From contig JAUWIJ010000005.1 of NCBI GenBank assembly GCA_030605415.1, forward strand, positions 2,375 to 66,374: 64,000 nucleotides of DNA, given 5' to 3'. The notes below the pieces were generated by a model that made no database searches, was not told the origin of the DNA, and saw only the letters and a list, made by a program, of their open reading frames with translations. Positions 24,178 through 59,617 of this stretch are shown here, piece by piece. Positions within the stretch are counted from its first letter, which is position 1. Each line of letters begins with the position of its first letter. The stretch is from an archaeon (GTDB taxonomy: Archaea > Nanobdellota > Nanobdellia > Pacearchaeales > GW2011-AR1). Made by a program: the position numbers and the translations under genes.

Positions 24178-24258
24178 AAGAACTGGAAATTCAAAGCAGA
24201 ACTCAGGTCGTTTCACTCTTAGAGCTGAGAACTTAGAGGGAGAGGGGAATTCTGGGGA
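24178..24258. repeat. mosaic repeat (GAGAACT-type words, degenerate CGCTTCGCT motif)
   Basis: CAGAACTCAGGTCGTTTCACTCTTAGAGCTGAGAACTTAGAGGGAGAGGGG parallels 43095-43125. Confidence 0.7.
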
Positions 24259-24262
24259 AAAC

Positions 24263-24355
24263 CTTGTTTGCACAATCTGTCATATACGCTTTTCCATCAG
24301 ATGATTTCATTTTCAGTTGTACGATATTATCGTACAACTGAGAACCTTCTTTCAT
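24263..24355 (-). pseudogene. fragment of a DinD/Bro-N-like gene (paralog of 39499..40326)
   Basis: My translation MKEGSQLYDNIVQLKMKSSDGKAYMTDCANK aligns with KEGSQLVTNCNQLKLKAPDGKYYLTDVGTTK of the intact gene. It runs into the repeat and stops. Confidence 0.65.
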
Positions 24356-24471
24356 AAGTTTCTAATAATGCTTCTTGGTTTAAATAGATATCTCGTTTGG
24401 TGAGTTTAGTTTTGGAAATGAAGAATATTGATGGCAACAAGTTTTTTAAAGAAGAATCAATATAGGATTTT

Positions 24472-37030: not shown

Positions 37031-38389
37031 TCAATTTAATTTTCTTGATATTACTAATCCCGCCAAATAAACATATCTTGAAATAATTGTCGCTATACAT
37101 GCTCCCATAACTGCGTGAAACATTGAATAGTGTAGTCCAATATTAATGAATGCGTAATTTAGAATTATATTTAATATTGTTGAGATGATTAATAAAACTG
37201 AAATAATTTTTGTTCTTTTTTGAGATGTGTAGTATGTTGTGTATAAACTAATCATTGGAAAGCTGATTAAAAGAAGCGATAGTACTTTTAGATAACTAAT
37301 TGCCGTTAGATATTCTGCGCCATAAATAAATTGAATAAGTAGTGGGGCTACGATAAATGTAAATATTGCTGCCGCGATTGAAATTAGAAGTGTAATGTTT
37401 CTGGTTTTTTTGAATCCCTGCTCAAGCTTCTTCCCTTTAAGTCTGGCGAATATTGGAAAGGTGGCGGCGGCAGAAAACGCAATTATAACTGAAGCTGAGG
37501 CTACTAGATTGAAAGCCGCCTGATAAAATCCGAGGAATTGGCCTTCGACATAATGTCCGAGCATAATTTGATCAATATAGCCAAAAAATATTCCGGAGAG
37601 AGCTGTGATAGATAGTGGAAGGATGAATTTTATTAATTCGCTTTTTTCTTTGGAATTTAATTTTTGCGCTTTTGTTTTTCTGAATGGATGTTTTAGTTTT
37701 GCTGTTATAAAGAGATAGGCGCCTCCAAGAAAATTGCAGAGAGAGAGGGCTATAAAAATCCACAGCAAATAAAATTCTACTGAGGAGACTTTGGCTAAAA
37801 AATAAATTATGAAAAGTGGGACTATTGTTAATCTGGATAGCTGGACAATTATTTCTTTTGTGAATTGGGGACGGAAGTCGTTTTTAGCGGTGAAAATTGG
37901 TCCTAAATATCCTGAGAAAATTACTATTGGAAGATAGATTGCACCTGCGAGTAGGGCATAATAAATTGGTTTATTGTAGTATGAATTAGCAAGCCATCCT
38001 GCCGAGGCCAAAAGTATTATGGATGATAGTGCAATTAATAAAATTTTATATTTTGTCAGAAGATAGAGATACCCTTTAGCTTTGGCGGGATTTTTGTCTA
38101 TTGTTTTTGACATGAATGTCATCAGCGCCGAACTTATTCCAAAATCACTAAAAACTCCCATAAGTAAAATAGTTGAGAGAGCCAGACCATATAGTCCATA
38201 AATTTCTGGCAGCATTAGTCTCGCTATAATGATAGTAAAGAGAAGTGAGCCTATTTTTGCGACCAAGGTTGTTGCAATTTGCCAAGTTGAATTTTTTATA
38301 GCTCGTCCCTCGTTTCCCGAAAAATCCCTCCGCTTAAATCTGCCTAAAATTTCTTTGGCTTCGCCTGTTTCTTTTTTTATTATATTCAT
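37031..38389 (-). CDS. polysaccharide/oligosaccharide flippase (Wzx, MOP superfamily)
   Basis: 452 aa, about 12-14 TM segments, position in a glycan cluster. Confidence 0.75.
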   Translation of the reverse strand: MNIIKKETGEAKEILGRFKRRDFSGNEGRAIKNSTWQIATTLVAKIGSLLFTIIIARLMLPEIYGLYGLALSTILLMGVFSDFGISSALMTFMSKTIDKNPAKAKGYLYLLTKYKILLIALSSIILLASAGWLANSYYNKPIYYALLAGAIYLPIVIFSGYLGPIFTAKNDFRPQFTKEIIVQLSRLTIVPLFIIYFLAKVSSVEFYLLWIFIALSLCNFLGGAYLFITAKLKHPFRKTKAQKLNSKEKSELIKFILPLSITALSGIFFGYIDQIMLGHYVEGQFLGFYQAAFNLVASASVIIAFSAAATFPIFARLKGKKLEQGFKKTRNITLLISIAAAIFTFIVAPLLIQFIYGAEYLTAISYLKVLSLLLISFPMISLYTTYYTSQKRTKIISVLLIISTILNIILNYAFINIGLHYSMFHAVMGACIATIISRYVYLAGLVISRKLN

Positions 38390-38856
38390 AGTTTTTTGAA
38401 TTTTCCTCTTATATTATCTACCTCTTCAGCTTTTAAATTGTTTACAGTAATCTTTATTTTTAAATTGAATTTTTGACATAGTCTCATTGTTTCGATCAAA
38501 TCGTCTTTTGTTGCATTGGTCTCGTGATAATATTGCTTATCTATTCTATCCAGTTTAATATTTGTAGCTATATCGCAAAGTTCCTTATCGTTAAATAATT
38601 CCTTAATTAGTTCTATCGAGGCATTATGGTTTTCTGATTTTATACCACAGAAAAATAATAATGCTAGAATTGAATTATAAATTGAATAGTAAAAATCACT
38701 AGTAGATGATTCATAAAAGTTATTATTAAATAAAAGTTTGGCACTCTGAAAGAATTTGATGGAAGTTAAAAAATAATTTTGAGTTAGGTTTTTATTCGGT
38801 TTGACCAGCTGTATTATATCCTTCTTTTTTAAAAATTTATAATTTACTTTAACCAT
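38386..38856 (-). CDS. HEPN-domain protein (toxin-like partner of the upstream nucleotidyltransferase)
   Basis: Helical 156-aa protein overlapping the MNT gene by 13 nt; genomic pairing is typical of HEPN-MNT modules. Confidence 0.5.
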   Translation of the reverse strand: MVKVNYKFLKKKDIIQLVKPNKNLTQNYFLTSIKFFQSAKLLFNNNFYESSTSDFYYSIYNSILALLFFCGIKSENHNASIELIKELFNDKELCDIATNIKLDRIDKQYYHETNATKDDLIETMRLCQKFNLKIKITVNNLKAEEVDNIRGKFKKL

Positions 38857-39440
38857 TTTAATTTATAAAATAACTCCGAATTTAATATGGGAATTCCTGT
38901 CAAAACTTCCACGGTAAGCGGATGATTTATTTGTTTAATAAACTCTTTCTTGTTTAATACTTTAATGTTTATATCAATTCCATAATTCTCAGAAACTCTA
39001 CGGGTTATAGGATTGAGTTTTTCTTTTTTTAGATTTGTGATAAAAAACAGGTCCACGTCCGACTTTTTGTTATTTGACCCAGTCGAATAGCTTCCGAATA
39101 AAATCATACAATCAATATTAAAAATTTCTTTGTTTATTTCCAACATTAGTTCTTCAATAACTATTTTTAGTTTTGGATTTTTTACTATAATTTCTATTAG
39201 TTTTTGTTTGGATAACGCTACCAAATATTGCTTTGCTACAAAATTTTTATTGATAAAATAAACTATGCTTTTTCCAAACTTTTTCTTTTCTAATACACCC
39301 TGCTGATAAAAAAAATTTAAAATTTTTGTTATCTGAGCGTGAGAAATATTTATCTTCCTAGAGATTCTTCTGCTGTGATTTTCTCCAATTTCTAATACTC
39401 TTAAAACTTGATAATAGCTATTGGTAACTTTTGTTTCCAT
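38844..39440 (-). CDS. wHTH + minimal nucleotidyltransferase (MNT) protein
   Basis: ILFGSYSTGSNNKKSDVDLFFI (GS...DxD) motif and an N-terminal HTH-like region. Confidence 0.7.
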   Translation of the reverse strand: METKVTNSYYQVLRVLEIGENHSRRISRKINISHAQITKILNFFYQQGVLEKKKFGKSIVYFINKNFVAKQYLVALSKQKLIEIIVKNPKLKIVIEELMLEINKEIFNIDCMILFGSYSTGSNNKKSDVDLFFITNLKKEKLNPITRRVSENYGIDINIKVLNKKEFIKQINHPLTVEVLTGIPILNSELFYKLKWLK

Positions 39441-39498: not shown

Positions 39499-40326
39499 TT
39501 ATTTTAGGATTTTTGTAGGATTTTTCTCAATGAAATTATTTATAGAGACGACTCTTTTGCCGGTTTTCTTTTCAATTTCTTTTTTCGCGTTTCCTGCGAT
39601 AGTGCCTCCTTCTTTTGCGATAACTTTGCTTTCTTCAAACCCCTTTGGTAATTTGTTTTTAGAAATCTCCGCCGTTGTAGCTTCGGCTAACATATTCAAA
39701 ACTAACTCTATATTACTCATATTGTCCCTTAATCCTTCTTTTTTTAAATTTTTGAAATTCTTATATTCTTTTGTAGTCATTTCTGACCATGCTTTAGAAA
39801 TTTCGTCTGTTAGAATTGCGAACTCCTTTCCTTTCTGAACACCTCTCTTTTCCCATTCGTTAGTCAAATCTTTTCTAATTTCAATAGATTTCAATCTTTG
39901 GTTAATCCATTCTTTTGAATAGCCCTTTTCTAGATAAGTCTTAAGCGCTCGATTAATTGCAAGTTCGGGGTCAGCCGTTTCGTTAATTCTCTCATTTCCA
40001 ACATTTGCAAGCCATAATTTAAATGGTTCGGCTTTCTTTGATGGAATAGACTGAACTAATCTCAAAATTTGCTTAGTTGTTCCAACGTCTGTTAAATAAT
40101 ATTTTCCATCAGGGGCTTTCAATTTCAGTTGGTTACAATTTGTAACCAACTGACTTCCTTCTTTTTTAAGCCTATATTTGAGAACCTTCCAATAATTTCG
40201 TGGATTGGGGCTATCTGTTAAAATGTCAATAATGTCCACAATACTAAACAACCATTCTTCGTCCTCGCTAATCCATGCATGACGGATTTCTTTTCCTTTG
40301 AATATAAGTTTTTTTGGCTTAATCAT
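39499..40326 (-). CDS. DinD/Bro-N-like DNA-damage-inducible-type protein
   Basis: Overall architecture and motifs (N-terminal Bro-N-like region, C-terminal NIELVLNMLAEATTAEI...GGTIAGNAKKEIE) resemble E. coli DinD-type proteins. Confidence 0.55.
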   Translation of the reverse strand: MIKPKKLIFKGKEIRHAWISEDEEWLFSIVDIIDILTDSPNPRNYWKVLKYRLKKEGSQLVTNCNQLKLKAPDGKYYLTDVGTTKQILRLVQSIPSKKAEPFKLWLANVGNERINETADPELAINRALKTYLEKGYSKEWINQRLKSIEIRKDLTNEWEKRGVQKGKEFAILTDEISKAWSEMTTKEYKNFKNLKKEGLRDNMSNIELVLNMLAEATTAEISKNKLPKGFEESKVIAKEGGTIAGNAKKEIEKKTGKRVVSINNFIEKNPTKILK

Positions 40327-43067: not shown

Positions 43068-43325
43068 TTAGGTCGCTTCGCTCCCAAATCTCAGAACTGA
43101 GGTCGTTTCACTCTGAGAACTTAGACCGCTTCGCTCTTTGCTTTAGAACTGAGACCGCTCATTTCATTCGCTCTTAGAACTGAGTACCCTCACCTATATA
43201 AAAGAAAAATAGGTTGGGGCAGACTCACCGCTTCGCTCTGAGAACTGCCCCCCGCTTCCCCTCTAAGTTCTCAGTTCTGAGTTCTTGCCAAAGATAGATA
43301 AATAGTTGTTAAAGGTTATGGATTA
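43068..43325. repeat. large composite mosaic element (CGCTTCGCT x3, AGAACT words, one core, conserved 3' tail)
   Basis: Core at 43185-43221. Left AGAACTGAG/GAGAACTTAGA words are mirrored on the right by CTCTAAGTTCTCAGTTCTGAG. Near-duplicate at 63285-63590. Confidence 0.9.
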
Positions 43326-47846: not shown

Positions 47847-48620
47847 ATGGAAAGAGGGAGGGAGATAATTAGATTGCGAGATGTTTCGAGGCATTACCCG
47901 ATGGGGGATTCTGTTGTGAAAGCTCTTAGTCATTTGGAGTTTAAGGTTTTTAAAGGGGAGTTTGTGGCGATTATGGGACCGAGTGGTTCTGGAAAATCCA
48001 CAATGATGAATCTTGTCGGGAGTTTGGATATGCCTACTTATGGTGCGATTTATTTGGATGGCGGTGATATTTCGGAACTGGACGAATCTGACTTGGCGCA
48101 AATTAGGGGGAAGAAGATTGGGTTTATTTTTCAGTCGTTTAATTTGATTCCTAATTTGACGGTGAAGGAAAATGTGATGTTGCCGATGATGTTTCAGGGG
48201 ACAGATATTGATGATAGGATGGATAGGGCAGAGGAACTTTTAGGACTAGTTGATTTGGAGGATAGGATGGACCATTACCCCGGAGAAATTTCTGGTGGCG
48301 AAATGCAGAGGGTTGCGATTGCGCGGAGTTTGGCGAATGACCCTGAAGTTATTTTGGCTGATGAGCCGACTGGGAATCTGGACACTAAGACCGGGACGAT
48401 TGTTATGGAATTTTTGGAAAAGTTAAACAAACAGGGGAAGACTGTTATTATGGTTACTCACGATTCTGATTTAGCTGAAGAGTATGCCGATGTTGTTTAT
48501 TGGCTTTTGGATGGGAAACTTGATAAGGTTACTAAGAGAGTTGGGAAAAGATTTGTTGATGTTACGAAGAAGAAAAAGAAGGAAGATAGGGAAACTACTA
48601 AGAAAAAGAGGAGAAAATAA
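47847..48620 (+). CDS. ABC transporter ATP-binding protein (MacB/LolD-type)
   Basis: Walker A GPSGSGKST, signature ISGGEMQRVAIARSL, Walker B ILADEPTGNLD. Confidence 0.92.
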   Translation: MERGREIIRLRDVSRHYPMGDSVVKALSHLEFKVFKGEFVAIMGPSGSGKSTMMNLVGSLDMPTYGAIYLDGGDISELDESDLAQIRGKKIGFIFQSFNLIPNLTVKENVMLPMMFQGTDIDDRMDRAEELLGLVDLEDRMDHYPGEISGGEMQRVAIARSLANDPEVILADEPTGNLDTKTGTIVMEFLEKLNKQGKTVIMVTHDSDLAEEYADVVYWLLDGKLDKVTKRVGKRFVDVTKKKKKEDRETTKKKRRK

Positions 48621-49840
48621 TGAGGCTTGATCATTTAATTCTGGCGTTGAAGAATTTGAGGCATCGTGGAATTCGTTCTTGGTTGACTTTGCTTGGGATT
48701 TTTATTGGCGTGACCGCTGTTGTTTCTTTGATGAGTTTGGGTGCTGGGTTGCAGGCGGCGGTTGGCGCTCAATTTGGAATCAGTTCTACAGAAGTTATAA
48801 CTGTTCAGGCAGGGGGGGTTAATGCTTTTGGCGCACCTGGAAGCGGGGCTGTTGATCGTCTGACAAATGCCGATGTTCGAGCCATTGAAAGTTTGTCTAG
48901 TGTAGATTTAGCCATCGGAAGAAATATCGAGACATTTAAAGTAGAATATAATGACCGGGTTGTATTTAATATGGGGGCGGGATTTCATGAGGGAGAAAAA
49001 GGGAAATGGGATTATGAGATGCAAGATATCGAAGCGGAAAAAGGACGGCTTCTGCAGGCGGGAGATAGAAAAAAGGTTATCTTGGGGTATAACTATATGT
49101 TTGAGGATAAAAATGGTTTTGATAAAGCGGTGCAAGTAGGCGATAAGATAAATTTGAATGATGTTTCTTTTAGAGTTGTTGGGATAATGAGCAAAAAGGG
49201 TAGTCTTATTATTGATAATATTATTGGGATTACAATTGATGATTTGGACGACCTTGTAGATAATGAAGATTATGTCGACGTTGTTTCTGTTAAGGTTAAA
49301 CGAAGTGATTTAATGGATAAGGCAGTAGGGGATATTACTAAGTTATTGAGGGACAGGAGAGATGTCGACGAGGGAGAAGAGGATTTTGAAGTTTCTACTC
49401 CGGAGGCAATGATGGAAACTGTTAATAGTATTCTTGGGGGCGTTCAGGCTTTTATTATAATTATTGCATCGATTTCAATTTTGGTCGGGGCGCTTGGAAT
49501 TGTTAATACGATGACGGCTTCTGTTTTGGAAAGGAGAAAAGAGATTGGAATTATGAAAGCGATTGGCGCTACAAATTTTCAGGTTTTTTTGCAGTTCTTT
49601 TTTGAGTCTGGGATGTTGGGTTTTATTGGTGGCTTGATTGGTGTGATTTTTGGGACTTTGATTGGTGTTGCGGGAATTATGGGAATTAATAGTTATCTTG
49701 GGGCGGAACTTTCTTTTGTGATTGATTTTGTGTTGATTGCGGGAGCTTTGATTGGAAGTTTTGTGGTTGGAGCCGTTGCGGGGATTGTTCCGGCGATGAG
49801 TGCAGCTAAACAAAATCCGGTGGAGGCGCTACGAGGATGA
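48620..49840 (+). CDS. ABC transporter permease (MacB-like periplasmic domain + FtsX domain)
   Basis: N-terminal TM, large extracytoplasmic domain, C-terminal FtsX TM bundle (ERRKEIGIMKAIGAT). Confidence 0.88.
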   Translation: MRLDHLILALKNLRHRGIRSWLTLLGIFIGVTAVVSLMSLGAGLQAAVGAQFGISSTEVITVQAGGVNAFGAPGSGAVDRLTNADVRAIESLSSVDLAIGRNIETFKVEYNDRVVFNMGAGFHEGEKGKWDYEMQDIEAEKGRLLQAGDRKKVILGYNYMFEDKNGFDKAVQVGDKINLNDVSFRVVGIMSKKGSLIIDNIIGITIDDLDDLVDNEDYVDVVSVKVKRSDLMDKAVGDITKLLRDRRDVDEGEEDFEVSTPEAMMETVNSILGGVQAFIIIIASISILVGALGIVNTMTASVLERRKEIGIMKAIGATNFQVFLQFFFESGMLGFIGGLIGVIFGTLIGVAGIMGINSYLGAELSFVIDFVLIAGALIGSFVVGAVAGIVPAMSAAKQNPVEALRG

Positions 49841-49924
49841 AATTAAAATCAAAGATTTTAATTTCGGTGTTCGGTGTTCGGTGTTCGGTGTTCGGTGACT
49901 TGGGCAACTTAAGGAGGTTCGGGA
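49837..49924 (+). repeat. mosaic intercistronic element, copy E8 (core-less, four GGTGTTC heptamers)
   Basis: ATGA overlap with the permease stop; 12-bp hairpin GAAATTAAAATC-AAA-GATTTTAATTTC; (GGTGTTC)x4; CTTGGGCAACT tail; AGGAGG. Confidence 0.9.
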
Positions 49925-51136
49925 ATGGTGATTAGTAAAGAGAGTGTGAAATATTCTTTGAATAATATTAAGAAAAGCAAGGCGAGAAGTGTGCTTACGA
50001 TTTTATCTATTTTTGTTGGGATTGCTACGATTTTTATTTTTGTTAGTTTTGGGTGGGGACTTTATGATTATATTGATGAGTTTACTTCGTCGTCGTCGGC
50101 AGATAAGTTGATGATTATGCCCAAGGGTGGTCTTATTCCTGGTCTGGATACGACGTTTAAACTTTTGGATGATGACGTGGAGGCGATTAAAAAAACGGCA
50201 GGGGTTTATGAGGCGACGGGAGTGCATATGGGTGTAGCTGAGGTGATACAAGGCGATTCGAAAAAATATGTATTTGTTGCAAGTTACGATCCTGACTTAC
50301 CGATGATAATGGAACTTTCTGACGTTGAGGTAGTTGAGGGACGGGCTCTTCGGGATGGCGATTCTGGGAAGGTTACTTTGGGATATAATTATATGATTAA
50401 GAATAAAATTTTCCCTAAAGCGTATTCTTTGAATAGTAAAATTAATGTGCAGGGGCAGGATCTTCGGGTCGTCGGGTTTTACGAGAAAATTGGGAACCCG
50501 CAGGATGATTCTAATATTTATGTGACGAATGATTTTGTGTCTGAGCTTTATCCGGATAAAATTATTTCTTATGGTATGATAATTGCGCGGGCGGATAAGG
50601 ATAATGTTGATGAGGTCGGTGAAAGGGTTGAGAAGAAGCTGGGGCAGTTTAGAGATTTGGACGAAGGGAAAGAGGATTTTACCGTCGAGTCTTACGCCGG
50701 CTTGTTGGAATCTTATATGATTGTTTTGGATATTATTGTCGGGTTTATTATTTTGATTGCTTTAATTTCCGTACTTGTGTCGGCGGTTAATACTGCGAAT
50801 ACTATGATTACTTCGGTGCTTGAGAGATTTAAGGAGATTGGGGTTTTGAAATCTATTGGCGCCCGGAATAGTGAAATTTTTAAGATATTTTTATTTGAGT
50901 CTGGGTTTCTTGGATTTGTCGCTGGGGTGATTGGAGTTTTGGCTGGATGGGGAATGACGATTTTTGCGGCGAATGCTTTGGATAGTTTTGGATATGGGTT
51001 TTTGAGTCCGCATTATTCCTGGGTTTTGTTTAGCGGGCTGGTTTTATTTGCAACTTTAACTGGTGCGATTTCTGGGATGATTCCAGCTTGGAGAGCGAGT
51101 AAGATTAATGCTGTTGATGCGCTTCGCTACGAGTAA
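49925..51136 (+). CDS. ABC transporter permease (second MacB/FtsX-type subunit)
   Basis: Same architecture as 48620..49840 (ERFKEIGVLKSIGAR). Confidence 0.88.
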   Translation: MVISKESVKYSLNNIKKSKARSVLTILSIFVGIATIFIFVSFGWGLYDYIDEFTSSSSADKLMIMPKGGLIPGLDTTFKLLDDDVEAIKKTAGVYEATGVHMGVAEVIQGDSKKYVFVASYDPDLPMIMELSDVEVVEGRALRDGDSGKVTLGYNYMIKNKIFPKAYSLNSKINVQGQDLRVVGFYEKIGNPQDDSNIYVTNDFVSELYPDKIISYGMIIARADKDNVDEVGERVEKKLGQFRDLDEGKEDFTVESYAGLLESYMIVLDIIVGFIILIALISVLVSAVNTANTMITSVLERFKEIGVLKSIGARNSEIFKIFLFESGFLGFVAGVIGVLAGWGMTIFAANALDSFGYGFLSPHYSWVLFSGLVLFATLTGAISGMIPAWRASKINAVDALRYE

Positions 51137-51138
51137 TC

Positions 51139-51296
51139 GACGGAACCTAAGGTTCCCTACAAGTAGCCTCCTCATATTGCGATAATCAAAATTTATTTTC
51201 TATGGAAAATAAATTTTATCTTATCGTATTTAATGCAAATTAAAATTTTTTAACGGTTCCGTCCAGAGGACACCTGAACCTAAAATTTTAATTTGC
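51139..51296 (+). other. densely structured intergenic segment (interleaved inverted repeats); candidate structured RNA or miniature element
   Basis: GACGGAACC (51139) pairs with GGTTCCGTC (51255). GCAAATTAAAATTTT (51235) pairs with AAAATTTTAATTTGC (51282). A 13-bp hairpin spans 51188-51217. Confidence 0.4.
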
Positions 51297-51454
51297 GGAC
51301 TTGTTCGGCTTGGATGGATGGATGGAGTGAGGTGTAGCAAGAAGTAAAGTGATGCAGAGTTTTAATTTTTATTTTCAGGTTGAGGGAGGGCGGTGGGACG
51401 ACCAATGTATTAGAGAGATAAGCCTACTTTTTGTTTCTGTTTTCTAAAAGAAGA

Positions 51455-52138
51455 TTATTTTCCAATTTTTAATAAAAATTCTTCTCTTGTTATTTCTTTG
51501 AGAGTTTTCAAATCAAGATAATAATTCTTTGGTTCAACTTCAACTTGCATTGATAAAGAATTTATTCTACCACAATCACATTCTATAACATAAAAATTGG
51601 ATGTGTCTGAAGTATAACTCATCAAATTACCTTCACATTTAAGAGAACATATTTCCTTTGATTCTAAATCTGTAAGAACATTTACTTTAGGATAATCTCT
51701 CTGATTAGCCAATTCTATAAATGAATTTTCTTCCTTAATAGTTTGAGAGTTTTCAGTAATGCTATTAATTTTGTTTGGAATTGAAGGATAAAATTGTAAA
51801 AATAAAACTACCAAAATTAATAATGTTATAATTAATAACCAAAAGAAACCTTTTCTATTCTGTTTTTTATATTTGTTTTTATGATAATTATCTTGGGATA
51901 AAGATTTAATAGCCCAATAAATTTTTTTGCTCTTAAAGATAAATACCAATAAAATAACCGGAATTGATATAATTAAAGCGATAGTAGAGTTATGATTAAA
52001 TCCTAATGTTCGGATGTAATTGTAAGCTAAATACAATAAAAATATTAAAGCTCCTACAACAAAGAGATAAACAATCATCTTATATTTTTCTTCTTGCTCT
52101 TCTTTTGTTATAACCCTAACCTTAAGAGATTTTGCCAT
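51455..52138 (-). CDS. hypothetical membrane protein
   Basis: Start taken at MAKSLKVRV. Three TM helices, then a Cys-containing extracytoplasmic domain. Confidence 0.45.
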   Translation of the reverse strand: MAKSLKVRVITKEEQEEKYKMIVYLFVVGALIFLLYLAYNYIRTLGFNHNSTIALIISIPVILLVFIFKSKKIYWAIKSLSQDNYHKNKYKKQNRKGFFWLLIITLLILVVLFLQFYPSIPNKINSITENSQTIKEENSFIELANQRDYPKVNVLTDLESKEICSLKCEGNLMSYTSDTSNFYVIECDCGRINSLSMQVEVEPKNYYLDLKTLKEITREEFLLKIGK

Positions 52139-52436
52139 AAAGAATAAATTAAAAAGAGGTTTATAATCATTTCGGCAAAACCGACAAATTATCCGAAAGA
52201 TTAGGAATTCCCCTATCAATGAAAAATTTGGGGGAGAAAGGCGAACCTTTTATCCTTGGTTATGCGAAATTTTAATTTCGTTGTTTTTGATTTTGTGGTC
52301 GGATAAAAGAAGTTTTTCTCTTTTGTCGAAGACAAAAGCTATTTGCTTGAAGAGCTATGGACAATCTCTCACTATCTTGAGTGAGCAAAACAATCGCCCC
52401 TAAAATAATATATGTTGCTAAAGAGTTAATTAAATA

Positions 52437-52757
52437 TTAATTTATTTCAATCCCAGTTTTGAGTGCTTCGCTTACAATGTTTAATCCGTTTTTTCTTTCC
52501 TCAAATTCCTCAGGAGTATAGCATAATAATTCTAAAGCAAAATCATTTTTCCAAAGTCGATAGCTAAGTAAAACTCTATTGCCCTGTTTTAAATTTTCAA
52601 ATTTTTTAGAGACTACGATTAAATCAAAATCGCTATCATTATGGAAATTGCCTTTCGCTCGGCTTCCAAAAAAAATAACTCTTTCAGCATTGATTTTTTT
52701 CAATTTCTTAAAATAATTTTTTATAATTTTTAAATTTTTAGCTGTTGTTTGCACCAT
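52437..52757 (-). CDS. minimal nucleotidyltransferase (MNT) of a HEPN-MNT pair
   Basis: IFFGSRAKGNFHNDSDFDLIVV motif. Confidence 0.75.
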   Translation of the reverse strand: MVQTTAKNLKIIKNYFKKLKKINAERVIFFGSRAKGNFHNDSDFDLIVVSKKFENLKQGNRVLLSYRLWKNDFALELLCYTPEEFEERKNGLNIVSEALKTGIEIN

Positions 52758-53122
52758 TTTAATATCTCCTGTGAATATTTCAAGGCGTCAATAGAACTTT
52801 CCTTGTCAAAAATCTCATTGTTTTTATCAGGATATCTTGAAAAACTTTCATATGGATTTAATAAAATTCCTTTTTCTTGAATATTTTTTGGAGCGTTTAT
52901 TCTTCTAGATAAAGAACCAAGTTCGTGCGTTTTAATAAGTCCTAATCCTTTATAGATGTGAACTGCTTTAAGTCCTTTCTCGGCAGTTTGCTGTGAGTAA
53001 AATAAGGCACCATCATACTCTCCAGCTTGAAAAAGTATTCTTGCTTTTCTTAAATCACTTTCGGCTTTTTTAATCCAAGCCACAGATTCAATTTTCCCGA
53101 TATCTCCCTTTTTGTTTTCCAT
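52730..53122 (-). CDS. HEPN-domain protein
   Basis: Helical 130-aa protein with QQTAEKGLKAVHI...HELGSL (Rx4-6H-like context); overlaps the MNT gene. Confidence 0.65.
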   Translation of the reverse strand: MENKKGDIGKIESVAWIKKAESDLRKARILFQAGEYDGALFYSQQTAEKGLKAVHIYKGLGLIKTHELGSLSRRINAPKNIQEKGILLNPYESFSRYPDKNNEIFDKESSIDALKYSQEILKWCKQQLKI

Positions 53123-53191
53123 TTTATTATGTTATTATCACTATAGATAAAATAGTATTTAATTGTTTTGGAAGTTTTTTATTGCAAAAAA

Positions 53192-54028
53192 TTATTTCTT
53201 TTTCTTCTTCGTAATTTTTTTGTAGCCGAAATAAATTATTAGCAGAACAACTAATCCTAAAAAGAAATATGTCGTTATGGAGGCTGTTGACTGGTCGGCT
53301 ATTCTGTCTGTGAAATATGAGGAGTCGAATGTGAGTGTTTTTTCGATTGTTCTTCTTGTATTTATTGCATCTGAGTAAGTTAATATTACTTTAAATTCTC
53401 CGTCGGTTGGAATTGCTTCAAATTCGGCCGAGGTGTATTCGTTTGAGTCGAGGTCTCCGACGATTATTTGGCTTGCTCCTTTAATTGTGATACCGTCTTG
53501 TTTTGGAATTTTTATACTCAGTGCCTCGACGTCTGAGGATTCGATATTTAAAATTTCTATTATTAATTCGTGAGTTTGGTAATCATAGTTTTGGACTCTG
53601 ACTTCAAAGTCGGCCCGGACGTCGTCCACTTCTATGTCGAATGTTTTTAAAATTGGTGCGTCGTAATTGTTTTGTATTCTAACTTCAATTGGGTTCGCAC
53701 CGTTCAGTGCGTCTTTGTTTATTCTGACTTTGTATGGAATTAGCAGGTTCGATTCGTAATCTTTTAGATAGTCTACTTTTTTGAAAGTTCTTAATCCCGA
53801 TTCCCCTGGGTCAAATTCTATTGGGTAGTCTGATAATAAATTGAATGTTATGTCGTCGCAGTATGGGTTATCGGTTCCTTCAATTTGGAAAACCAGTTTT
53901 ACGTAATCGCCCGGGACAGCTGGGTAGGGGTCTTGATTTAATAGTGTAACGTCGAGGTCGCATGCCGTTTCTGCCGTCGCCATTGCAATTGATAAAACCA
54001 GTAATAACATCATCACGCTTTTTTTCAT
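53192..54028 (-). CDS. secreted, C-terminally anchored cell-surface protein (S-layer-domain/CARDB-like)
   Basis: Signal peptide MKKSVMMLLLVLSIAMATA, beta-rich body, C-terminal TM followed by KKITKKKKK. Confidence 0.55.
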   Translation of the reverse strand: MKKSVMMLLLVLSIAMATAETACDLDVTLLNQDPYPAVPGDYVKLVFQIEGTDNPYCDDITFNLLSDYPIEFDPGESGLRTFKKVDYLKDYESNLLIPYKVRINKDALNGANPIEVRIQNNYDAPILKTFDIEVDDVRADFEVRVQNYDYQTHELIIEILNIESSDVEALSIKIPKQDGITIKGASQIIVGDLDSNEYTSAEFEAIPTDGEFKVILTYSDAINTRRTIEKTLTFDSSYFTDRIADQSTASITTYFFLGLVVLLIIYFGYKKITKKKKK

Positions 54029-54179
54029 AGTATATATTATATTCTTTTATTTTTAAATACTTCTAATTTTAAAAACCGGTGATTGTTTAAATTATCTCAG
54101 AAAAATTTAAAAAGGAAACTTGGCAGAAATGTGAGATGGTTCTCAAAGAGTACCATAAATAAAAAAGGTGATTAATTAA

Positions 54180-54341
54180 ATGGCAAAAAAATGTATTTAT
54201 TGTTCTGTGGAAATTGATTCTGGTTCGGTTGTTGACATATGCCAGCGTTGTATGTATCAGGTTTGGGGTGAGAAGATGACGAAGGCGATTGTCGAGGGAA
54301 TGGAGAAAGAGAGGGACACGAGCGAGGCATTTGGGACATAA
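54180..54341 (+). CDS. small zinc-ribbon protein (53 aa) whose C-terminus and stop lie in the heptamer repeat
   Basis: My translation is [53 protein letters not shown]. Below the ORF-track size cutoff. Confidence 0.45.
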
Positions 54342-54480
54342 GCGAGGGATTTGGTATTTGGGATTTGGGATTCGTGGGGAACGGGAGCGGGGACAGGGGA
54401 GCGAGGTATTTGGCATTTGGGATTTGGAATTCGTGGGAACGGGGAAACTGAGGAAGGGGGAAGTTGGTAGTGGGGTTGAT
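54300..54480. repeat. mosaic repeat with GGTATTT/GGGATTT heptamers
   Basis: GAGGGACACGAGCGAGGCATTTGGGA and GGTATTTGGGATTTGGGATTCGTGGGG parallel 2255-2320. Confidence 0.85.
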
Positions 54481-54548
54481 TCTGAGAACATTGTTGATTG
54501 TTCTGAAGTTGGAGATGCAGAGAAATTTTGCGTATAAATTTCGGCGAA

Positions 54549-54563
54549 AAAGTTTATAAAGGG
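54549..54563 (+). promoter_or_regulatory. TATA-box-like AAAGTTTATAAAGGG, candidate promoter of the L21e cluster
   Basis: Motif and downstream T-rich segment resemble 3312-3345. Confidence 0.4.
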
Positions 54564-54734
54564 AATTTTTCTTGATTTGTTAGGATAATTATTGTCCGAG
54601 TTGTTTGCAGCGCAAGTAGTTCTGTAATCATTTGGTATAGCGAGAAAACGGGGGAGTTTCGTTTATATTAATAAAAGTTAAAATAGTAACTACAAGGGTC
54701 ACGAGAACCTTTTTTAAAAATCTCGAATTAGAAA

Positions 54735-54986
54735 ATGGCAAGACGAGGAAAGCGAGTTAGGGAAAAGGGAAAGTTGAAACTTAGTTCTTACTTTAAAAAA
54801 ATTGATGATGATGCGGATGTTGCTCTGGTAACTGATGCTGGGATTCGGGCTTCGTTTCCCAAGAGACTGAAGGGAATGAGTGGGAAAGTTTGCGGAAGTC
54901 GGGGAAAATTTAAGTTAGTAAAAATTAAAGATGGGGACAAGTTGAAGACATTTATAATTCATCCTGTTCACCTGAGAAAGTTATAA
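54735..54986 (+). CDS. rpl21e: 50S ribosomal protein L21e (eL21)
   Basis: RRGKRVREKGK start, SH3-like body, conserved L21e-RpoF-DUF655 neighbourhood. Confidence 0.88.
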   Translation: MARRGKRVREKGKLKLSSYFKKIDDDADVALVTDAGIRASFPKRLKGMSGKVCGSRGKFKLVKIKDGDKLKTFIIHPVHLRKL

Positions 54987-54987
54987 A

Positions 54988-55290
54988 ATGACGATAAAAG
55001 AAAAAACACCTATTACTATGGCAGAAGTCGTTGTCTTGGCTGAAGGCTCAGACAAAGGCAAAGCGATTAAGGATTTTATTAAGAATTTTGATACGGTGAA
55101 TATTAAGAAGGCGAGAGAGATGAAAGAAGAGTTAAAGGGTCTTGATTTGATTAAGTTGAAAGACGAGAATATTGTGAAAATTGTAGATTTTATTCCGACT
55201 GATGTTTCCGAATTAAATAAAATTCTTGTTGGAGTTTCTCTTGATCAGGACGAAGTAAATAAAATTTTAGATGTTACTAAAAAATATTAA
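54988..55290 (+). CDS. rpoF: DNA-directed RNA polymerase subunit F (Rpo4)
   Basis: 100-aa helical protein in the conserved position after L21e. Confidence 0.7.
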   Translation: MTIKEKTPITMAEVVVLAEGSDKGKAIKDFIKNFDTVNIKKAREMKEELKGLDLIKLKDENIVKIVDFIPTDVSELNKILVGVSLDQDEVNKILDVTKKY

Positions 55291-55292
55291 CT

Positions 55293-55402
55293 ATGGCTAA
55301 AGTAATATTTTCAATATTTCATAAATCCATTTTTAGGAGATTGAAAAATGGCTAAAGTAACATTAGAAATGTTTCATGAATCCATTTTTAGGAGATTGAA
55401 AA
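55293..55402 (+). repeat. two tandem 55-nt copies of the DUF655 gene's leader plus start codon, each an upstream mini-ORF
   Basis: The units ATGGCTAAAGTAAT...TAGGAGATTGAAAA (55293) and ATGGCTAAAGTAAC...TAGGAGATTGAAAA (55348) differ at 6 of 55 positions. The gene itself starts ATGGCTAAAGAAG at 55403. Confidence 0.85.
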
Positions 55403-55939
55403 ATGGCTAAAGAAGAGAATGCGGTTATATTGGATTTTTTGCCTTATGGCTATCCGTTGGAAAATAAAAGAATGCCTATGGCTCAAGCTATCGGAACTAT
55501 CGGACTTACTTTGCTTCAACTTGTTCCTCGACGAGGAGAAAGGTTTGAAGTTGGAGAGGTTGTTTATATTGGTGATGGGAAGCGAGAGAAGGTTCAATAT
55601 ATTCTTGGACGATGTCCGAGGGAAAAGTTAACTGAGGCGGCGAAGCGTGAGATGGAAGAGTTTGTTAAGAATGCGGTCGAAAAAGATGAGCAAAAATTTG
55701 TTAAGTTTTTTAATGAGGCGCAAGCTATAAATACTCGACTTCATCAATTTGAATTGTTGCCTGGACTTGGAAAGAAACATACGAGAGCGATTCTTGCGGC
55801 GAGAAAAGAAAAGGATTTCGAGTCATTTGATGATATCAAAAAGCGAATTCCCAATATACCCTCTCCGGAGAAGCTTATTGAAAAAAGAATTATGGAAGAG
55901 TTGACAGAAATACAGAGACATAATTTGTTTATTTTGTAA
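55403..55939 (+). CDS. DUF655-family nucleic-acid-binding protein (OB + helix-hairpin-helix)
   Basis: AVILDFLPYGYP start, LHQFELLPGLGKKHTRAIL HhH motif, conserved neighbourhood with rpoF. Confidence 0.75.
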   Translation: MAKEENAVILDFLPYGYPLENKRMPMAQAIGTIGLTLLQLVPRRGERFEVGEVVYIGDGKREKVQYILGRCPREKLTEAAKREMEEFVKNAVEKDEQKFVKFFNEAQAINTRLHQFELLPGLGKKHTRAILAARKEKDFESFDDIKKRIPNIPSPEKLIEKRIMEELTEIQRHNLFIL

Positions 55940-55946
55940 TATTAAA

Positions 55947-56423
55947 ATGGAAAAAATAAAGAAAAAATACAACAAGGAAGAACAAAACGACGTTACATTA
56001 GTGAGGGTGTTGGGAAAGGATATCCGAGGAGATACTAAGGTTGGTCAAGCACTTACTAAGATTAGCGGAATTTCCTGGACATTTGCTAATGCTATTTGTA
56101 AAATTTTGAAACTTGATAAGCAACAAAGAATTCAAGACGTGAACAAGGAAGAGATGGTGGTGATTGAAGAATTTATTAAGAATCCTGAGGTTCCTGGGTT
56201 TTTGAAAAATAGACAAAAAGATTTTGAGGATGGTGAGGATAAACATATTGGCGGAATGGATTTGAAGCTGAGGAAGGAGTTTGATATTAAGAGGTTGAAA
56301 AAAATCAGGTCGTATAAGGGTGTTCGACATGCGGCCAATTTACCTGTGAGGGGACAAAAAACTAAAGCAAATTTCAGGCGTAATAGGAAAAAATCTGTTG
56401 CGGCTGCTAAGAAAACGAAATAA
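55947..56423 (+). CDS. rps13: 30S ribosomal protein S13 (uS13)
   Basis: VRVLGKDIRGDTKVGQALTKISGI and YKGVRHAANLPVRGQKTK motifs. Confidence 0.93.
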   Translation: MEKIKKKYNKEEQNDVTLVRVLGKDIRGDTKVGQALTKISGISWTFANAICKILKLDKQQRIQDVNKEEMVVIEEFIKNPEVPGFLKNRQKDFEDGEDKHIGGMDLKLRKEFDIKRLKKIRSYKGVRHAANLPVRGQKTKANFRRNRKKSVAAAKKTK

Positions 56424-56424
56424 A

Positions 56425-56967
56425 ATGGGAGGCATTAAAAGAAAACGAAAATTGTTTAGTCGACCTAAAAAATTATTTGATCGGGTTAGAATGGACGAGG
56501 AGAATGTTTTGGTTAAGCGATATGGTTTGAAAAATAAGCGGGAAATATGGAAAGCAAAAACTACTGTTTCAAAACTGAGACGAAGAGCCAAGACTTTAAT
56601 TGGTAAAGATATGACTGAACAGCAAATATTTTTTGATAGGTTAAATAAAATTGGTATGAACATTACGGATGTTTCTGATGTGTTGGCTTTGACCGAGGAA
56701 AATATTTTTGAGAGGCGACTACAAACTTTCCTTTTTAAAAAGAAGTTAGCTAATACAATAAAGCAGGCGCGACAATTAATTATTCATAAGAATGTTTTGG
56801 TTGATGGCTCTGTTGTTAATATCCCTTCGTTTATTGTAACCAAAGAATTGGAAGATAAGATTGTCCTGAAAGAAAAGAGGGTTAAGAAAAAAGCTCCTGT
56901 GGAAAAGGTAATGGATGAAGAAAATAAGGAAGTAAAGGAGGAAGTTATTGAAGATGGTAAAGTATGA
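56425..56967 (+). CDS. rps4: 30S ribosomal protein S4 (uS4)
   Basis: KRYGLKNKREIWK and an S4 RNA-binding domain (QARQLIIHKNVLVDG). Start at an internal Met of the ORF track. Confidence 0.92.
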   Translation: MGGIKRKRKLFSRPKKLFDRVRMDEENVLVKRYGLKNKREIWKAKTTVSKLRRRAKTLIGKDMTEQQIFFDRLNKIGMNITDVSDVLALTEENIFERRLQTFLFKKKLANTIKQARQLIIHKNVLVDGSVVNIPSFIVTKELEDKIVLKEKRVKKKAPVEKVMDEENKEVKEEVIEDGKV

Positions 56968-57015
56968 TTCAAGAATCGTTCATGAACTATTTTATTTAAA
57001 GATAGGTTTAAAAAA

Positions 57016-57402
57016 ATGGTAAAGAATGAAGATAATGTTGGGGTTTTGAATATTTATGCGAGTTTTAATAATACGATTGCGACCGTGACTGATTTGGCTG
57101 GGAATACTATTGGGCGGATTTCTGGTGGGCAGATTACGAAGCATGACCGGATGAGGGCGAATCCTACGATTGCTATGTTTATTGCGAAGAAGGTGCATGA
57201 CGCGTGTAGGGATTATAGGATTAAAACGCTTTATGTCAGGATGAAGGGGCAAACTGGGGCGACTGGAATCGGACCTGGGGCGCATGCGATTGTTCGGACT
57301 TTGACTAAAGAGGGATTTAAAATTTTAAGTATAGTTGAGACGACTGCTGTTGCTCGTGGTGGTCCAAAAAAGAAGGGCGGAAGAAGGGGGCGGAGAGTAT
57401 GA
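57016..57402 (+). CDS. rps11: 30S ribosomal protein S11 (uS11)
   Basis: ASFNNTIATVTDLAGNTI and GPGAHAIVRTLTKEGFKI motifs. Confidence 0.95.
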   Translation: MVKNEDNVGVLNIYASFNNTIATVTDLAGNTIGRISGGQITKHDRMRANPTIAMFIAKKVHDACRDYRIKTLYVRMKGQTGATGIGPGAHAIVRTLTKEGFKILSIVETTAVARGGPKKKGGRRGRRV

Positions 57403-57508
57403 TGAAATCAGAGATTTCATCATCGGTGTTCGGACGCTTCGCTGTTCGGTGTTCGGACGCTTCGCTGTTCGGGGCTTGGCGGTTAAGTAAAGTTGGGGGA
57501 ATGAAATA
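57399..57508 (+). repeat. mosaic intercistronic element, copy E7 (core-less, two GGACGCTTCGCTGTTCGG units)
   Basis: ATGATGAAATCAGAGATTTCATCA hairpin on the S11 stop. GGTGTTCGGACGCTTCGCTGTTCGG occurs twice. GGGGCTTGGCGG tail variant. Confidence 0.88.
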
Positions 57509-57814
57509 ATGGGAGAAGAACATGTTGCGCCTTATAGTGAGAAAGTTGCTCGAGCTAATGTGAGGGAGGGAAATTTTAGAGATTATGATGGGAATGAGAT
57601 TGGGACTGTAGAAAATTTAGTTGCAGAGTTTACTGATGCTTTTTATCAAATTAATATGTGGGTAAGTGGCAGGATGGCTGGCACAAGAATCAAAGATACT
57701 GTGAATAATTATAAAGCCATAAGATACTGCTATAATCATGATACGCATGGAATGGATGATAAAATAAATGAAGAATTGAGGCATTATTCTTGCACTTTTG
57801 GTGTTAAGATATAA
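57509..57814 (+). CDS. orphan protein inserted between S11 and RpoD
   Basis: 101-aa ORF whose start overlaps the stop (TAATG) of the element-spanning frame. No family recognised. Confidence 0.45.
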   Translation: MGEEHVAPYSEKVARANVREGNFRDYDGNEIGTVENLVAEFTDAFYQINMWVSGRMAGTRIKDTVNNYKAIRYCYNHDTHGMDDKINEELRHYSCTFGVKI

Positions 57815-57844
57815 ACTTATAAACTAAAAACTGAATAAAATAAA

Positions 57845-58552
57845 ATGGAAATGATTATAAAAACGCCGGAAGAGATTAGTTTTGTTAGTGAGATGAATGT
57901 TAGTTTGGCTAATGCGATTCGAAAAAGTGTTGGGGAGGTTCCGATTTTGGCGATTGTCGAGGCTGATATTTATAAAAATGACTCTGCTCTTTACGATGAA
58001 GTTATTGCGCATAGACTTGGACTTATACCTTTGAAGAATCAAAAAATGAAGGCCAACCAGAGTGTTGAAATGAAATTAAAGGTTAAGGGGAAAGGCGAGG
58101 TGACTGAGGTTTTTGCTGGCGAACTTGGTGGTGATGTTATTTATCCTGAAGCTCCGATTGTTTTGCTTAGTGATGGACAGGAAATTGAGTTGGTTGCTCG
58201 GGCTAAAATTGGAAAAGGGATTGAACACGCGAGGTTTATGCCCGGACTTGCTTTCTATAAACATTTACCCAAGATTAAAATTTCTGGCGAGGGTGAAAAG
58301 CAGAGTGAGTTGGCTGAAATTTATCCTGAAGTTTTTGAAATGTTCGGCGAGAAGTTGAAGGTTAAAAATGCCGTGGCTTGTGATTTGGATCAGGACGACA
58401 TGGTCGACTATCCTGGCATTAGTGTTGAATTTGATAATCATTTGGTTTTCACAATTGAATCGTGGGGGCAGATTGAAGCTAAAGAAATTTTTACCGAAGC
58501 GTGTAAGGCTTTGAAGGGAAATCTTTCGGAAGTCTCTAAGGCAATTAAATAA
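57845..58552 (+). CDS. rpoD: DNA-directed RNA polymerase subunit D (Rpo3)
   Basis: ANAIRKSVGEVPILAI and DEVIAHRLGLIPLK motifs; position after S11. Confidence 0.9.
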   Translation: MEMIIKTPEEISFVSEMNVSLANAIRKSVGEVPILAIVEADIYKNDSALYDEVIAHRLGLIPLKNQKMKANQSVEMKLKVKGKGEVTEVFAGELGGDVIYPEAPIVLLSDGQEIELVARAKIGKGIEHARFMPGLAFYKHLPKIKISGEGEKQSELAEIYPEVFEMFGEKLKVKNAVACDLDQDDMVDYPGISVEFDNHLVFTIESWGQIEAKEIFTEACKALKGNLSEVSKAIK

Positions 58553-58608
58553 TTAACTAAAAGTTCTTGAGGAATTTTTAGGGAATATATTATTCCCAGT
58601 ATGAGAAA

Positions 58609-58971
58609 ATGGATATAAAAATAAGCAAAACAAAAATAGAGAAAAGAATGAAACACAAGATGAATGTTTCTTTAGTCGAGGTTATCGTAAAATTGAAAAA
58701 GACTAATCCTATTGTTGCGAAAGAGTTAGCTCGACCGAAGCGAAGATGGCCTGCGATTAATTTGAAAGATATCGATATGATTAAGGGCGATGTTTTGATT
58801 GCGGGGAAAGTTTTGAGTGCTGGTGATTTGAGTGGGGCGAAGAAAATTGTTGCGTGGTCTGCGTCGGGTAGGGCGGCTGAAAAAATTAAGGGCGCGAAGG
58901 GAACATTTATTTCGATTATTGATGAAATGAAGAAAAATCCTGAACTAAATGGTTATGATATTTTGCGATGA
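58609..58971 (+). CDS. rpl18e: 50S ribosomal protein L18e (eL18)
   Basis: Position between rpoD and L13; ARPKRRWPAINL and GKVLSAGDL motifs. Confidence 0.85.
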   Translation: MDIKISKTKIEKRMKHKMNVSLVEVIVKLKKTNPIVAKELARPKRRWPAINLKDIDMIKGDVLIAGKVLSAGDLSGAKKIVAWSASGRAAEKIKGAKGTFISIIDEMKKNPELNGYDILR

Positions 58972-59616: not shown

Positions 59617-59617
59617 T

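Follow-up and report, generated by a model that had tools for sequence, protein, structure and literature searches.

What keeps a perfect palindrome inside the reading frame of a protein-coding gene? Inverted repeats rarely overlap coding sequence, and the stretch of archaeal DNA analysed here (64,000 nt of the Pacearchaeales contig JAUWIJ010000005.1, the whole of which is called the window below) holds two 27-nt palindromes of this kind, one within an intact gene with a Bro-N domain and a likeness to the SOS gene dinD, the other within the remnant of a second such gene. We find that each is a copy of an old inverted repeat, aligned with the codons and characteristic of the DinD/Bro-N superfamily, and we regard it as virtually certain that this repeat is a real, ancient element acting at the nucleotide level.

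A preliminary description of the window had located the two sites and called them perfectly palindromic, which the window sequence confirms. Both are assigned to the minus strand and consist of two 13-nt arms around a single central nucleotide, CAGTTGGTTACAA-T-TTGTAACCAACTG in the intact gene (40126-40152) and CAGTTGTACGATA-T-TATCGTACAACTG in the remnant (24314-24340). A further T/A pair flanks each of them, giving 29 nt (40125-40153 and 24313-24341), and in the remnant the arms reach 17 nt with one mismatch (24310-24344). Read on the minus strand, the first encodes QLVTNCNQL (CAG TTG GTT ACA AAT TGT AAC CAA CTG) and the second QLYDNIVQL (CAG TTG TAC GAT AAT ATC GTA CAA CTG), as had been reported; the inner arms have likewise diverged while staying palindromic, although at six of the seven inner positions and not at all seven. 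Codons at mirror positions are reverse complements of each other (GTT/AAC, ACA/TGT, TAC/GTA, GAT/ATC), and in the intact gene, where the palindrome spans codons 59-67 about 175 nt into the open reading frame (ORF), both arms are translated and codons map onto codons. The 27 nt of the remnant copy, which we refer to as the YDNIV class, are found unchanged in intact genes of Flavobacterium and of phage contigs (L054, L093, L097).

Folding gives a stem of 13 bp capped by a loop of 3 nt, with energies of -12.7 to -12.8 kcal/mol as DNA and -18.2 to -18.3 kcal/mol as RNA (z -5.6 to -7). A scan of the window for perfect arms of at least 13 nt with a spacer of at most 3 nt returned three sites, these two and one at 16650-16678, while 200 block-wise shuffles of the window returned none, and other codon-aligned 27-mers of the same genes form on average about 3 of 13 pairs, with a maximum of 9. 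A chance origin of the window palindromes is excluded.

Covariation in the Bro-N/PDC-S13 and DinD families

The Bro-N/PDC-S13 family is very large: 8000 candidates from bacteria, archaea and lineages of the candidate phyla radiation (CPR) were scored, with identities of about 70%, and every one passed. A set of 160 loci was retrieved from species genomes and IMG/VR, and the 27 nt preceding the invariant Lys68 were excised. The same 9-codon block recurs in 164 homologous loci, which are bacterial, archaeal or on phage contigs, in 96 distinct versions, nearly all of them forming 10-13 of the 13 pairs, and the classes are as different in sequence as CAACTGGTGACAAATTGTCACCAGTTG, GAGTTGACTACAAATTGTAGTCAACTG, GAACTGTCCGAAAAAATCGGACAGTTG, GAAAGCGTTACAAATTGTAACGCTTTC, GAGTTGTCGACATTTTGTCGACAACTG and TACATAGGGACAAATTGTCCCCAGGTA. 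At stem pairs 2-11, 93% of the combinations are Watson-Crick. Over 90 distinct sequences, 88% of the structural pairs are formed compared with 64% in shuffles, and the covariation score is 0.62 compared with 0.19, neither value being matched in any of 500 shuffles; controls with a slid partner were 24-42% paired. Changes on both sides are seen at 12 of the 13 stem pairs, and in a parsimony reconstruction of 142 genes, using a tree built without the palindrome block, pairs 3, 8 and 9 changed 29, 32 and 47 times, always on both sides and with no unpaired state. A scan of all column pairs over the 825-nt gene detected no second conserved helix, on which ground a larger structured RNA was rejected as a candidate.

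The protein cannot be the source of this covariation, because leucine and glutamine codons switch in pairs with their residues unchanged. At Leu2 and Gln8 of the block, TTG occurs with CAA in 53 cases and CTG with CAG in 24, with one discordant case, and the third base of codon 1 is 100% concordant with the first base of codon 9; a protein-level explanation was rejected on such synonymous-only covariation. Many other paired substitutions are synonymous on one arm and amino-acid-changing on the other, as where GTT>GTG is accompanied by Asn>His (AAC>CAC) on the mirror arm, and the synonymous substitution rate dips over codons 60-68. Since self-complementarity survives hundreds of matched base changes, the constraint has to be something other than the protein. 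The proposal that compensatory changes have kept the palindrome is thus borne out by synonymous sites in the 164 loci, nearly all of which are palindromic; homologues without a palindrome at this position, which the preliminary description had named as the refuting case, are a small minority. Its extension, that paired substitutions imply selection, stands as far as a constraint on nucleic acid is concerned and falls short beyond that, as homogenisation of the arms by template switching can yield and preserve such pairs without function.

Several states of imperfect pairing are old and widely distributed. The class ETVTNC[NH]QL keeps ACG/CAG within a 2x2 internal loop, in archaea as well as in CPR bacteria and Firmicutes, while the resolutions CTG/CAG and ACG/CGT occur elsewhere. 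In seven cases GCT/AGT was never converted to the synonymous AGC (0/7), and a T.C mismatch is conserved in 10 genes of one family. A few members of both families have lost the palindrome (L166, L167, L187, L188, L278, L377).

True DinD genes, collected in a Pfam-based survey, carry a codon-aligned palindrome of 30 nt with an even centre, which reads GAY CAT TTT NNN GAN on its first arm and GTC N'N'N' AAA ATG RTC on its second. Metagenome and viral loci gave 104 distinct blocks, about 95% of them palindromic and most with 12-15 of 15 pairs, covarying as GTT/AAC, GCT/AGC, CGT/ACG, CCT/AGG and CCC/GGG, and as GAT..ATC versus GAC..GTC; DinD-type loci also match PF02498, at 40-50 bits. In dinD of Escherichia coli K-12 (L223:7761-8585) the palindrome TGACCATTTCGAGGAGATCCTCGATATGGTCA lies at nt 174-205 of the coding sequence, with 14 of 15 pairs and one T.T mismatch. 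This dinD is an accessory gene: of 5426 complete E. coli genomes only 1898 match a 60-nt probe, in every case on the chromosome. Where present it is nearly invariant, and population variation in E. coli was set aside as a test for that reason. Among Bro-N proteins whose C-terminal part is of another kind, a palindrome at the same spot is also found in Chondrinema BRO proteins and in a Treponema fusion of Fic with Bro-N (11 of 12 pairs in each), as well as in a Bacteroidota Bro-N family of 294-304 aa, whereas canonical prophage Bro-N genes have a weaker one at the equivalent spot in some cases and none in most. The 27-nt form with its odd centre and the 30-nt form occupy the same loop-coding segment and both place codon on codon, which is what a difference of a single central codon would produce.

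Several side observations concern the architecture of family members. Internal partial duplications of about 80 aa are present in some (P0010, P0020; L077, L079), and in L079 the palindrome blocks YENIV and TTNCS, which differ, lie 291 nt from each other (3145, 3436), a pattern suggestive of mosaics or tandem fusions. Upstream of a Bacteroidota member lies another perfect palindrome, TGCAATTGCGTCCGCAGTGCGGACGCAATTGCA (16+1+16, L398:155-187), which has no relation to the coding palindrome.

The level of the constraint and its possible causes

A stem in sense RNA should tolerate G.U far better than A.C. Among distinct blocks the PDC-S13 stems contain 841 Watson-Crick pairs, 8 G.T, 18 A.C and 33 other combinations and the DinD stems 1115, 15, 28 and 30 (over both families 0.9-1.3% G.T, 2.0-2.4% A.C and 2.5-3.7% other mismatches), so that G.U on the sense strand is outnumbered in either family by A.C as well as by the remaining mismatches, in counts that reflect few independent events shaped by codon constraints and are suggestive only. 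The symmetry moreover runs through the centre: Asn63 is encoded by AAT in 94 of 99 genes, against 65.7 expected from their own codon usage (simulation P < 5e-6), and Thr62 by ACA in 100 of 104, against 32.6 expected. As G.U is not enriched and the symmetry includes a centre at which a hairpin cannot pair, we infer that the constraint lies on DNA, not on protein, and probably not on the sense mRNA.

The palindrome is also independent of protein function. Relatives of the pseudogene L392 read GAA...TTG and are mismatched (G.G) at one pair, whereas in L392 itself (TAACTGTCGACAACTTGTCGACAGTTA) a nonsense TAA stands opposite TTA, a synonymous change from TTG, so that 13 of 13 pairs form; the frameshifted L386 retains 13 of 13 pairs, and the dead fragment in the window is perfect. 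Arms are extended in L414 (18/20) and L392 (15/15), as in the window fragment. Decay in pseudogenes was discarded as a discriminating test, L392 excepted, the pseudogenes being too young (a mean of about 10.8 pairs versus 11.2 in intact genes).

A hairpin of 12-13 bp with a 3-5-nt loop in the sense mRNA could nevertheless limit or time the expression of a potentially toxic mobile gene, by ribosome pausing, by decay or processing, or by protein binding. The stability of the RNA stem (about -18 kcal/mol, z about -6) and the conservation of structure with freedom of sequence, the classic signature of RNA, are in its favour, as are the loose last central pairs of DinD (GAG with GTC is common), an internal position that travels with the gene, and a conserved purine-rich GAAGGA upstream with AAA-AUG just downstream, which recalls hairpin-bridged start sites. 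The scarcity of G.U, the central codon biased to symmetry, the perfect palindrome in non-coding remnants and the paired nonsense change of L392 all speak for something else. The stem is followed by AAAATGAAA in the sense and ACTTCCTTC in the antisense direction, and the missing U-tract disposes of an intrinsic terminator; about a quarter of the genes have TTA, CTT, TTT or ATT after the stem in place of a start codon, and an internal start site (GAAGGA, hairpin, AUG) was rejected accordingly. An Rfam search over the gene, at E values up to 10, yielded noise with nothing better than E 5, and the family spans archaea, bacteria and phages, which to our knowledge have no double-stranded RNA nuclease in common. 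We consider an mRNA hairpin rather unlikely. Also rejected were a -1 frameshift site, since the upstream A AAA AAG of the window copy has no conserved counterpart in homologues, and a LexA box or promoter hexamers, for which neither spacing nor sequence is conserved.

Binding and recombination had both been put forward in the preliminary description, and neither fares well. A dimeric binding site of the ordinary sequence-specific kind is contradicted by a sequence that varies too freely. As an operator for the gene's own dimer, read by the helix of residues 42-55 encoded just upstream and forming with it a linked autoregulation module, the palindrome would suit the predicted DdrC-like and hence possibly dimeric fold (see below) and a dyad symmetry that includes the centre. 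Palindrome classes track helix variants (YWKVLK.RL with VTNC[NH], YWSVLKTRL with [AT]TNCS, YWSDLK.KL with Y[ED]NIV or SE.IG), and L088 and L120, 99% identical elsewhere, differ in a patch of about 70 nt over helix 42-57 and the palindrome, which swaps the two together. This correlation may reflect phylogeny and physical adjacency; every stem position covaries, the would-be spacer included, while operators are rarely perfect over 27-30 bp, and the 96 and 104 variants share no conserved half-site to set against a rather conserved helix. Searched for further copies that might serve as binding sites, the genome of the window has the motif only in Bro-N genes and their remnants and in one orphan mini-copy, with none in promoters. 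An operator is very unlikely.

Near-identical copies of the gene (96-99%) occur in unrelated contexts, with similarity running from the ribosome-binding site to just past the stop codon, and the gene accordingly appears to move as a cassette of about 0.85-1 kb. Such mobility would suit a recombination, integration or nicking site (an att core, an origin or a fragile site) serving the cassette or other elements. Many Bacteroidota genomes contain N-terminal fragments, several of which end at residues 57-75, L394 and L395 start within the palindrome, and the patch that separates L088 from L120 looks, from the sequences, like a conversion tract ending in the right arm. These ends fit fragility of the palindrome, yet fragility is a side effect of a palindrome and no reason for keeping one. 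The cassette ends at its ribosome-binding site and stop codon and not at the palindrome, the window fragment spans both arms instead of being split there, breakpoint enrichment is modest with imprecise alignment ends, and searches of Pfam, PADLOC and Foldseek found no recombinase, relaxase or HUH nuclease domain in the 275-aa protein. We hold this explanation to be the most improbable of those considered. An att site flanking the island of 24.3-40.1 kb was dismissed, the palindromes differing at 6 of 7 inner arm positions and the fragment containing both arms, and a scan for recombination breakpoints was dropped after giving few, mutually non-independent events. Separately, L388 and L393, from two Bacteroidota genomes (G610, G614), share a nonsense mutation in the right arm (CGA CAG > CGA TAG), as if the pseudogene lineage itself had spread.

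A more serious alternative, though still an unlikely one, is that the palindrome perpetuates itself without function: a single inverted duplication by template switching would have arisen in a tolerant loop, and its arms would since have been homogenised by template switching or hairpin-templated repair, dragging the amino acids along. Watson-Crick-only pairing without an excess of G.U, symmetry through the centre, the extended arms, a paired change in L392 that creates a stop codon and the perfection of dead copies are all in line with this, and there is published precedent in coding palindromes of Nematomorpha and in the maintenance of hairpins by template switching (PMC6649704, PMC8794818, PMC13100816). 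The L392 nonsense pair and the extended arms of L414 and the window fragment stand, on the other hand, alongside long-lived mismatch classes, and imperfect states should vanish fast under homogenisation. ACG/CAG persists even though both resolutions are viable elsewhere, GCT/AGT is never corrected and the T.C mismatch is kept in 10 genes; retention is about 95% over two very divergent families, and palindromes do not accumulate in general, the only other one in the 64 kb being intergenic.

As imperfect classes are stable and widespread (ETVTNC[NH]QL, T.C and the T.T of E. coli), we prefer selection to conversion alone, and tentatively favour, with somewhat less than even confidence, a selected DNA element able to form a hairpin or cruciform, whose arms change together through template switching and which is retained as a cis element travelling with the cassette. 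Paired changes would arise most readily as single events, when replication switches template from one arm to the other, and would persist because the stem has to stay intact. In what is the weakest step of the proposal, the element would be self-contained and travel with a horizontally mobile single-gene cassette. It would most probably be a supercoiling-dependent cruciform or hairpin, which might impede transcription through the gene or be bound by the gene's own DdrC-like dimer, a putative binder of DNA structures; either would couple expression to DNA breakage or relaxation without a host-specific regulator. The specific version of this, a host-independent switch in the coding sequence in which a cruciform extruded from intact, negatively supercoiled DNA, or a dimer-held site, blocks transcription until breakage or relaxation of the DNA, through damage or phage, turns the gene on, is speculative and on present evidence improbable.

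Several points weigh against a selected DNA element. A function-free, self-homogenising palindrome predicts equally well the features that favour DNA, namely Watson-Crick-only pairing, central symmetry, the longer arms of L392 and L414 and survival in dead copies, and the limits on the mismatch counts leave those counts compatible with the mRNA hairpin, doubtful as we judge it. Arms of 13-15 bp extrude poorly in cells, and the DinD centres (GACGTC, GAGGTC) are not A/T-rich. The two forms may not be homologous codon for codon: hhalign leaves the N-terminal domains of DinD and PDC-S13 unaligned, and aligning the conserved K-M dipeptide would offset the 27-nt and 30-nt palindromes by about 3 codons.

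Known systems and implications

A literature search found no paper on an intragenic palindrome in dinD or Bro-N genes, and we know of no conserved intragenic cruciform with an established regulatory role in prokaryotes. Fold-back structures inside coding regions are found in the mRNAs of hok-type toxins and of the IS10 transposase, which share with the DinD/Bro-N palindrome a hairpin conserved in structure and variable in sequence that lies within a coding region, the gene being mobile or potentially toxic; those stem-loops use G.U freely, are strand-specific and lie near translation starts or mRNA ends, whereas here G.U is unfavoured, the symmetry is central and the site lies 175 nt in. The cruciform-forming inverted repeats of the ColE1 type, intergenic plasmid sites with 13-bp arms and a short loop that have been studied mainly in vitro, resemble the DinD/Bro-N palindrome in size (27-32 bp with a loop of 3-5 nt), in requiring perfect arms and, for the Bro-N branch, in having an A/T-rich centre. 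Within parB/spo0J, a palindromic parS site lies in the coding sequence of its own dimeric DNA-binding protein. The sequence of parS is conserved across bacteria, while in the DinD/Bro-N palindrome only self-complementarity is conserved.

A published parallel is provided by mitochondrial genes of Nematomorpha, in which perfect inverted repeats of up to 284 bp lie in functional coding sequence with one pairing phase favoured; the authors discuss an active conversion of the repeats through template switching and the possibility that they are parasitic (2019, PMC6649704). There too both arms are coding and the degeneracy of the code is used to keep pairing. Those repeats are scattered and are gained and lost between species in the mitochondrial DNA of one animal lineage, unlike the DinD/Bro-N palindrome, which is short, lies at one fixed position as the sole conserved helix of the gene, is retained in about 95% of cases across bacteria, archaea and phages, and shows paired sequence turnover with stable imperfect variants. 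Palindromic DNA is also known in frame inside protein-coding genes as Rickettsia palindromic elements (cited in PMC6649704), which are selfish insertions of about 100-150 bp in many genes whose repeat identity is lost over time, in contrast to a native segment of 27-30 nt in one domain that is kept paired. Template switching creates and maintains hairpins (Monttinen and Loytynoja, 2022, PMC8794818), including inverted repeats in yeast promoters (PMC13100816). One-step compensatory changes and homogenisation or extension of the arms are common to such hairpins and to the palindrome described here, and fit L392 and L414 as well as the fact that mismatched intermediates are almost absent; the known examples are from rRNA and other RNA genes and from promoters, not from a conserved site inside a protein-coding gene. 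Template switching explains why pairs change jointly, not why the site is kept.

Whatever its cause, a palindrome has been kept at a single position of a gene superfamily in thousands of genomes and metagenome assemblies, at the cost of amino-acid changes. If it is functional, a cis element has gone unrecognised both in dinD, a classic SOS gene, and in a family that is a candidate for phage defence; should the topology switch be true, a single mobile gene, E. coli dinD included, could detect damage to DNA in whatever bacterium, archaeon or phage carries it, with no need of a regulator of its own. If it is without function, it is to date the clearest example among prokaryotes of a palindrome perpetuating itself in a gene through concerted evolution of its arms, with a bearing on how compensatory substitutions are read in any search for conserved structure.

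Host gene, remnants and genomic setting

Features of the DinD/Bro-N palindromes and their host genes in the window
Feature	Position	Strand	Basis
Intact 275-aa gene, N-terminal Bro-N domain, DinD-like helical C-terminal half	39499..40326	-	Pfam, PADLOC and PHROG matches
Remnant of second Bro-N/PDC-S13 gene, ~96 nt centred on palindrome	24265..24360	-	tblastn and nhmmer
Perfect 27-nt codon-aligned palindrome (29 nt with T/A pair)	40126..40152	-	Homologous block covaries in 90 distinct sequences
Perfect 27-nt palindrome, YDNIV class, in dead gene fragment	24314..24340	-	Window sequence; identical 27 nt in intact homologues

The product of the intact gene matches the Pfam Bro-N domain PF02498 over residues 13-108 (E 1.8e-8, 35.3 bits versus a cut-off of 25.6), the PADLOC hidden Markov model PDC-S13 along its full length (E 3.1e-129, residues 7-270 of 275) and phrog_15286 (E 1.6e-124). 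The gene is DinD-like and not DinD, because the NCBIfam equivalog NF008573 reaches 21 bits, over residues 121-223 only, versus a cut-off of 242; in an hhalign comparison of PDC-S13 with the DinD family the C-terminal halves alone align (probability 75%). PDC-S13 is a candidate single-gene phage defence family, a computational candidate only, and a literature search found no paper that mentions it.

In the AlphaFold model (pLDDT, the predicted local distance difference test, of 83.8) residues 59-67 are placed in a loop between the helix of residues 42-55 and a strand at 65-70, the first of the beta-hairpin in the N-terminal domain. A Foldseek search of the PDB with this model gave dimers of Deinococcus radiodurans DdrC as the sole significant matches (probability 1.0, E 8e-5 to 2e-4), with about 255 aligned columns and a TM score of 0.31-0.48 that point to a shared overall fold, while a search of the PDB at sequence level gave no match. 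DdrC is a DNA-damage-induced dimer that binds nicks and breaks (PMC11347143; PMC9303277), and was called unique or Deinococcus-specific in the papers that characterised it. Dimerisation and binding to nicks and breaks, known for DdrC, would extend to the window protein by likeness of fold, and this likeness suggests that DinD, PDC-S13 and DdrC could form one superfamily of DNA-damage-linked DNA binders. The predicted fold would thus tie DinD/Bro-N proteins to a DNA-break-binding protein that had been thought confined to one genus.

The remnant lies in an intergenic gap between a GT4 glycosyltransferase gene and aglB/STT3. By tblastn it matches residues 50-92 with one TAG stop, and by nhmmer model positions 155-250 (E 5e-10); homology is limited to about 24265-24360, and its flanks are about 70-85% identical to homologues. 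The 888-kb genome to which the window belongs, archaeal in appearance by its STT3/AglB-type gene, holds one further full Bro-N/PDC-S13 copy and one truncated copy. An orphan palindrome block of 30 nt, GAGTCGGTTACAAACTGTAACCAGTTGAAA, lies in intergenic DNA with no other gene homology nearby (G000:C5:124724-124756; L424:592-624), a find that is biased by the pattern search through which it was made.

The remnant adjoins an intergenic repeat (24228-24248), and both Bro-N remnants of this genome abut repeats of that type. These belong to a genome-wide family (G000 contigs C1-C22; in the window also at 43251-43271) of short AGAACT[TC]AGAG-type units that lead into GGGGAAGGGG-like runs; modules of ggttctaagagcgaatgaaatgagcggtctgag and taccctcacaaatat..caggttggggcac frequently accompany them, and the core motif has 20 copies against 1 for a control. 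A motif common to the flanks of both remnants was accordingly rejected as a remnant-specific feature, being this same repeat.

Directly downstream of the intact gene, a pair of HEPN and minimal nucleotidyltransferase (MNT) genes (38386-39440) lies within a low-GC island. The GC skew of the plus strand, (G-C)/(G+C), is strongly positive, at 0.3-0.47 in most 2-kb bins of the window; it is strongest at 1-28000 and 48000-60000, and about zero only in low-GC island bins at about 32-40 kb and 52-54 kb. The third perfect palindrome of the window, CAAATATGAAATC-TTT-GATTTCATATTTG at 16650-16678, is intergenic and overlaps the stop codon of a 280-aa ORF (15816-16658) whose product resembles a ribosomal protein; an intergenic repeat module comes after it, and this palindrome is probably a 3'-end hairpin.

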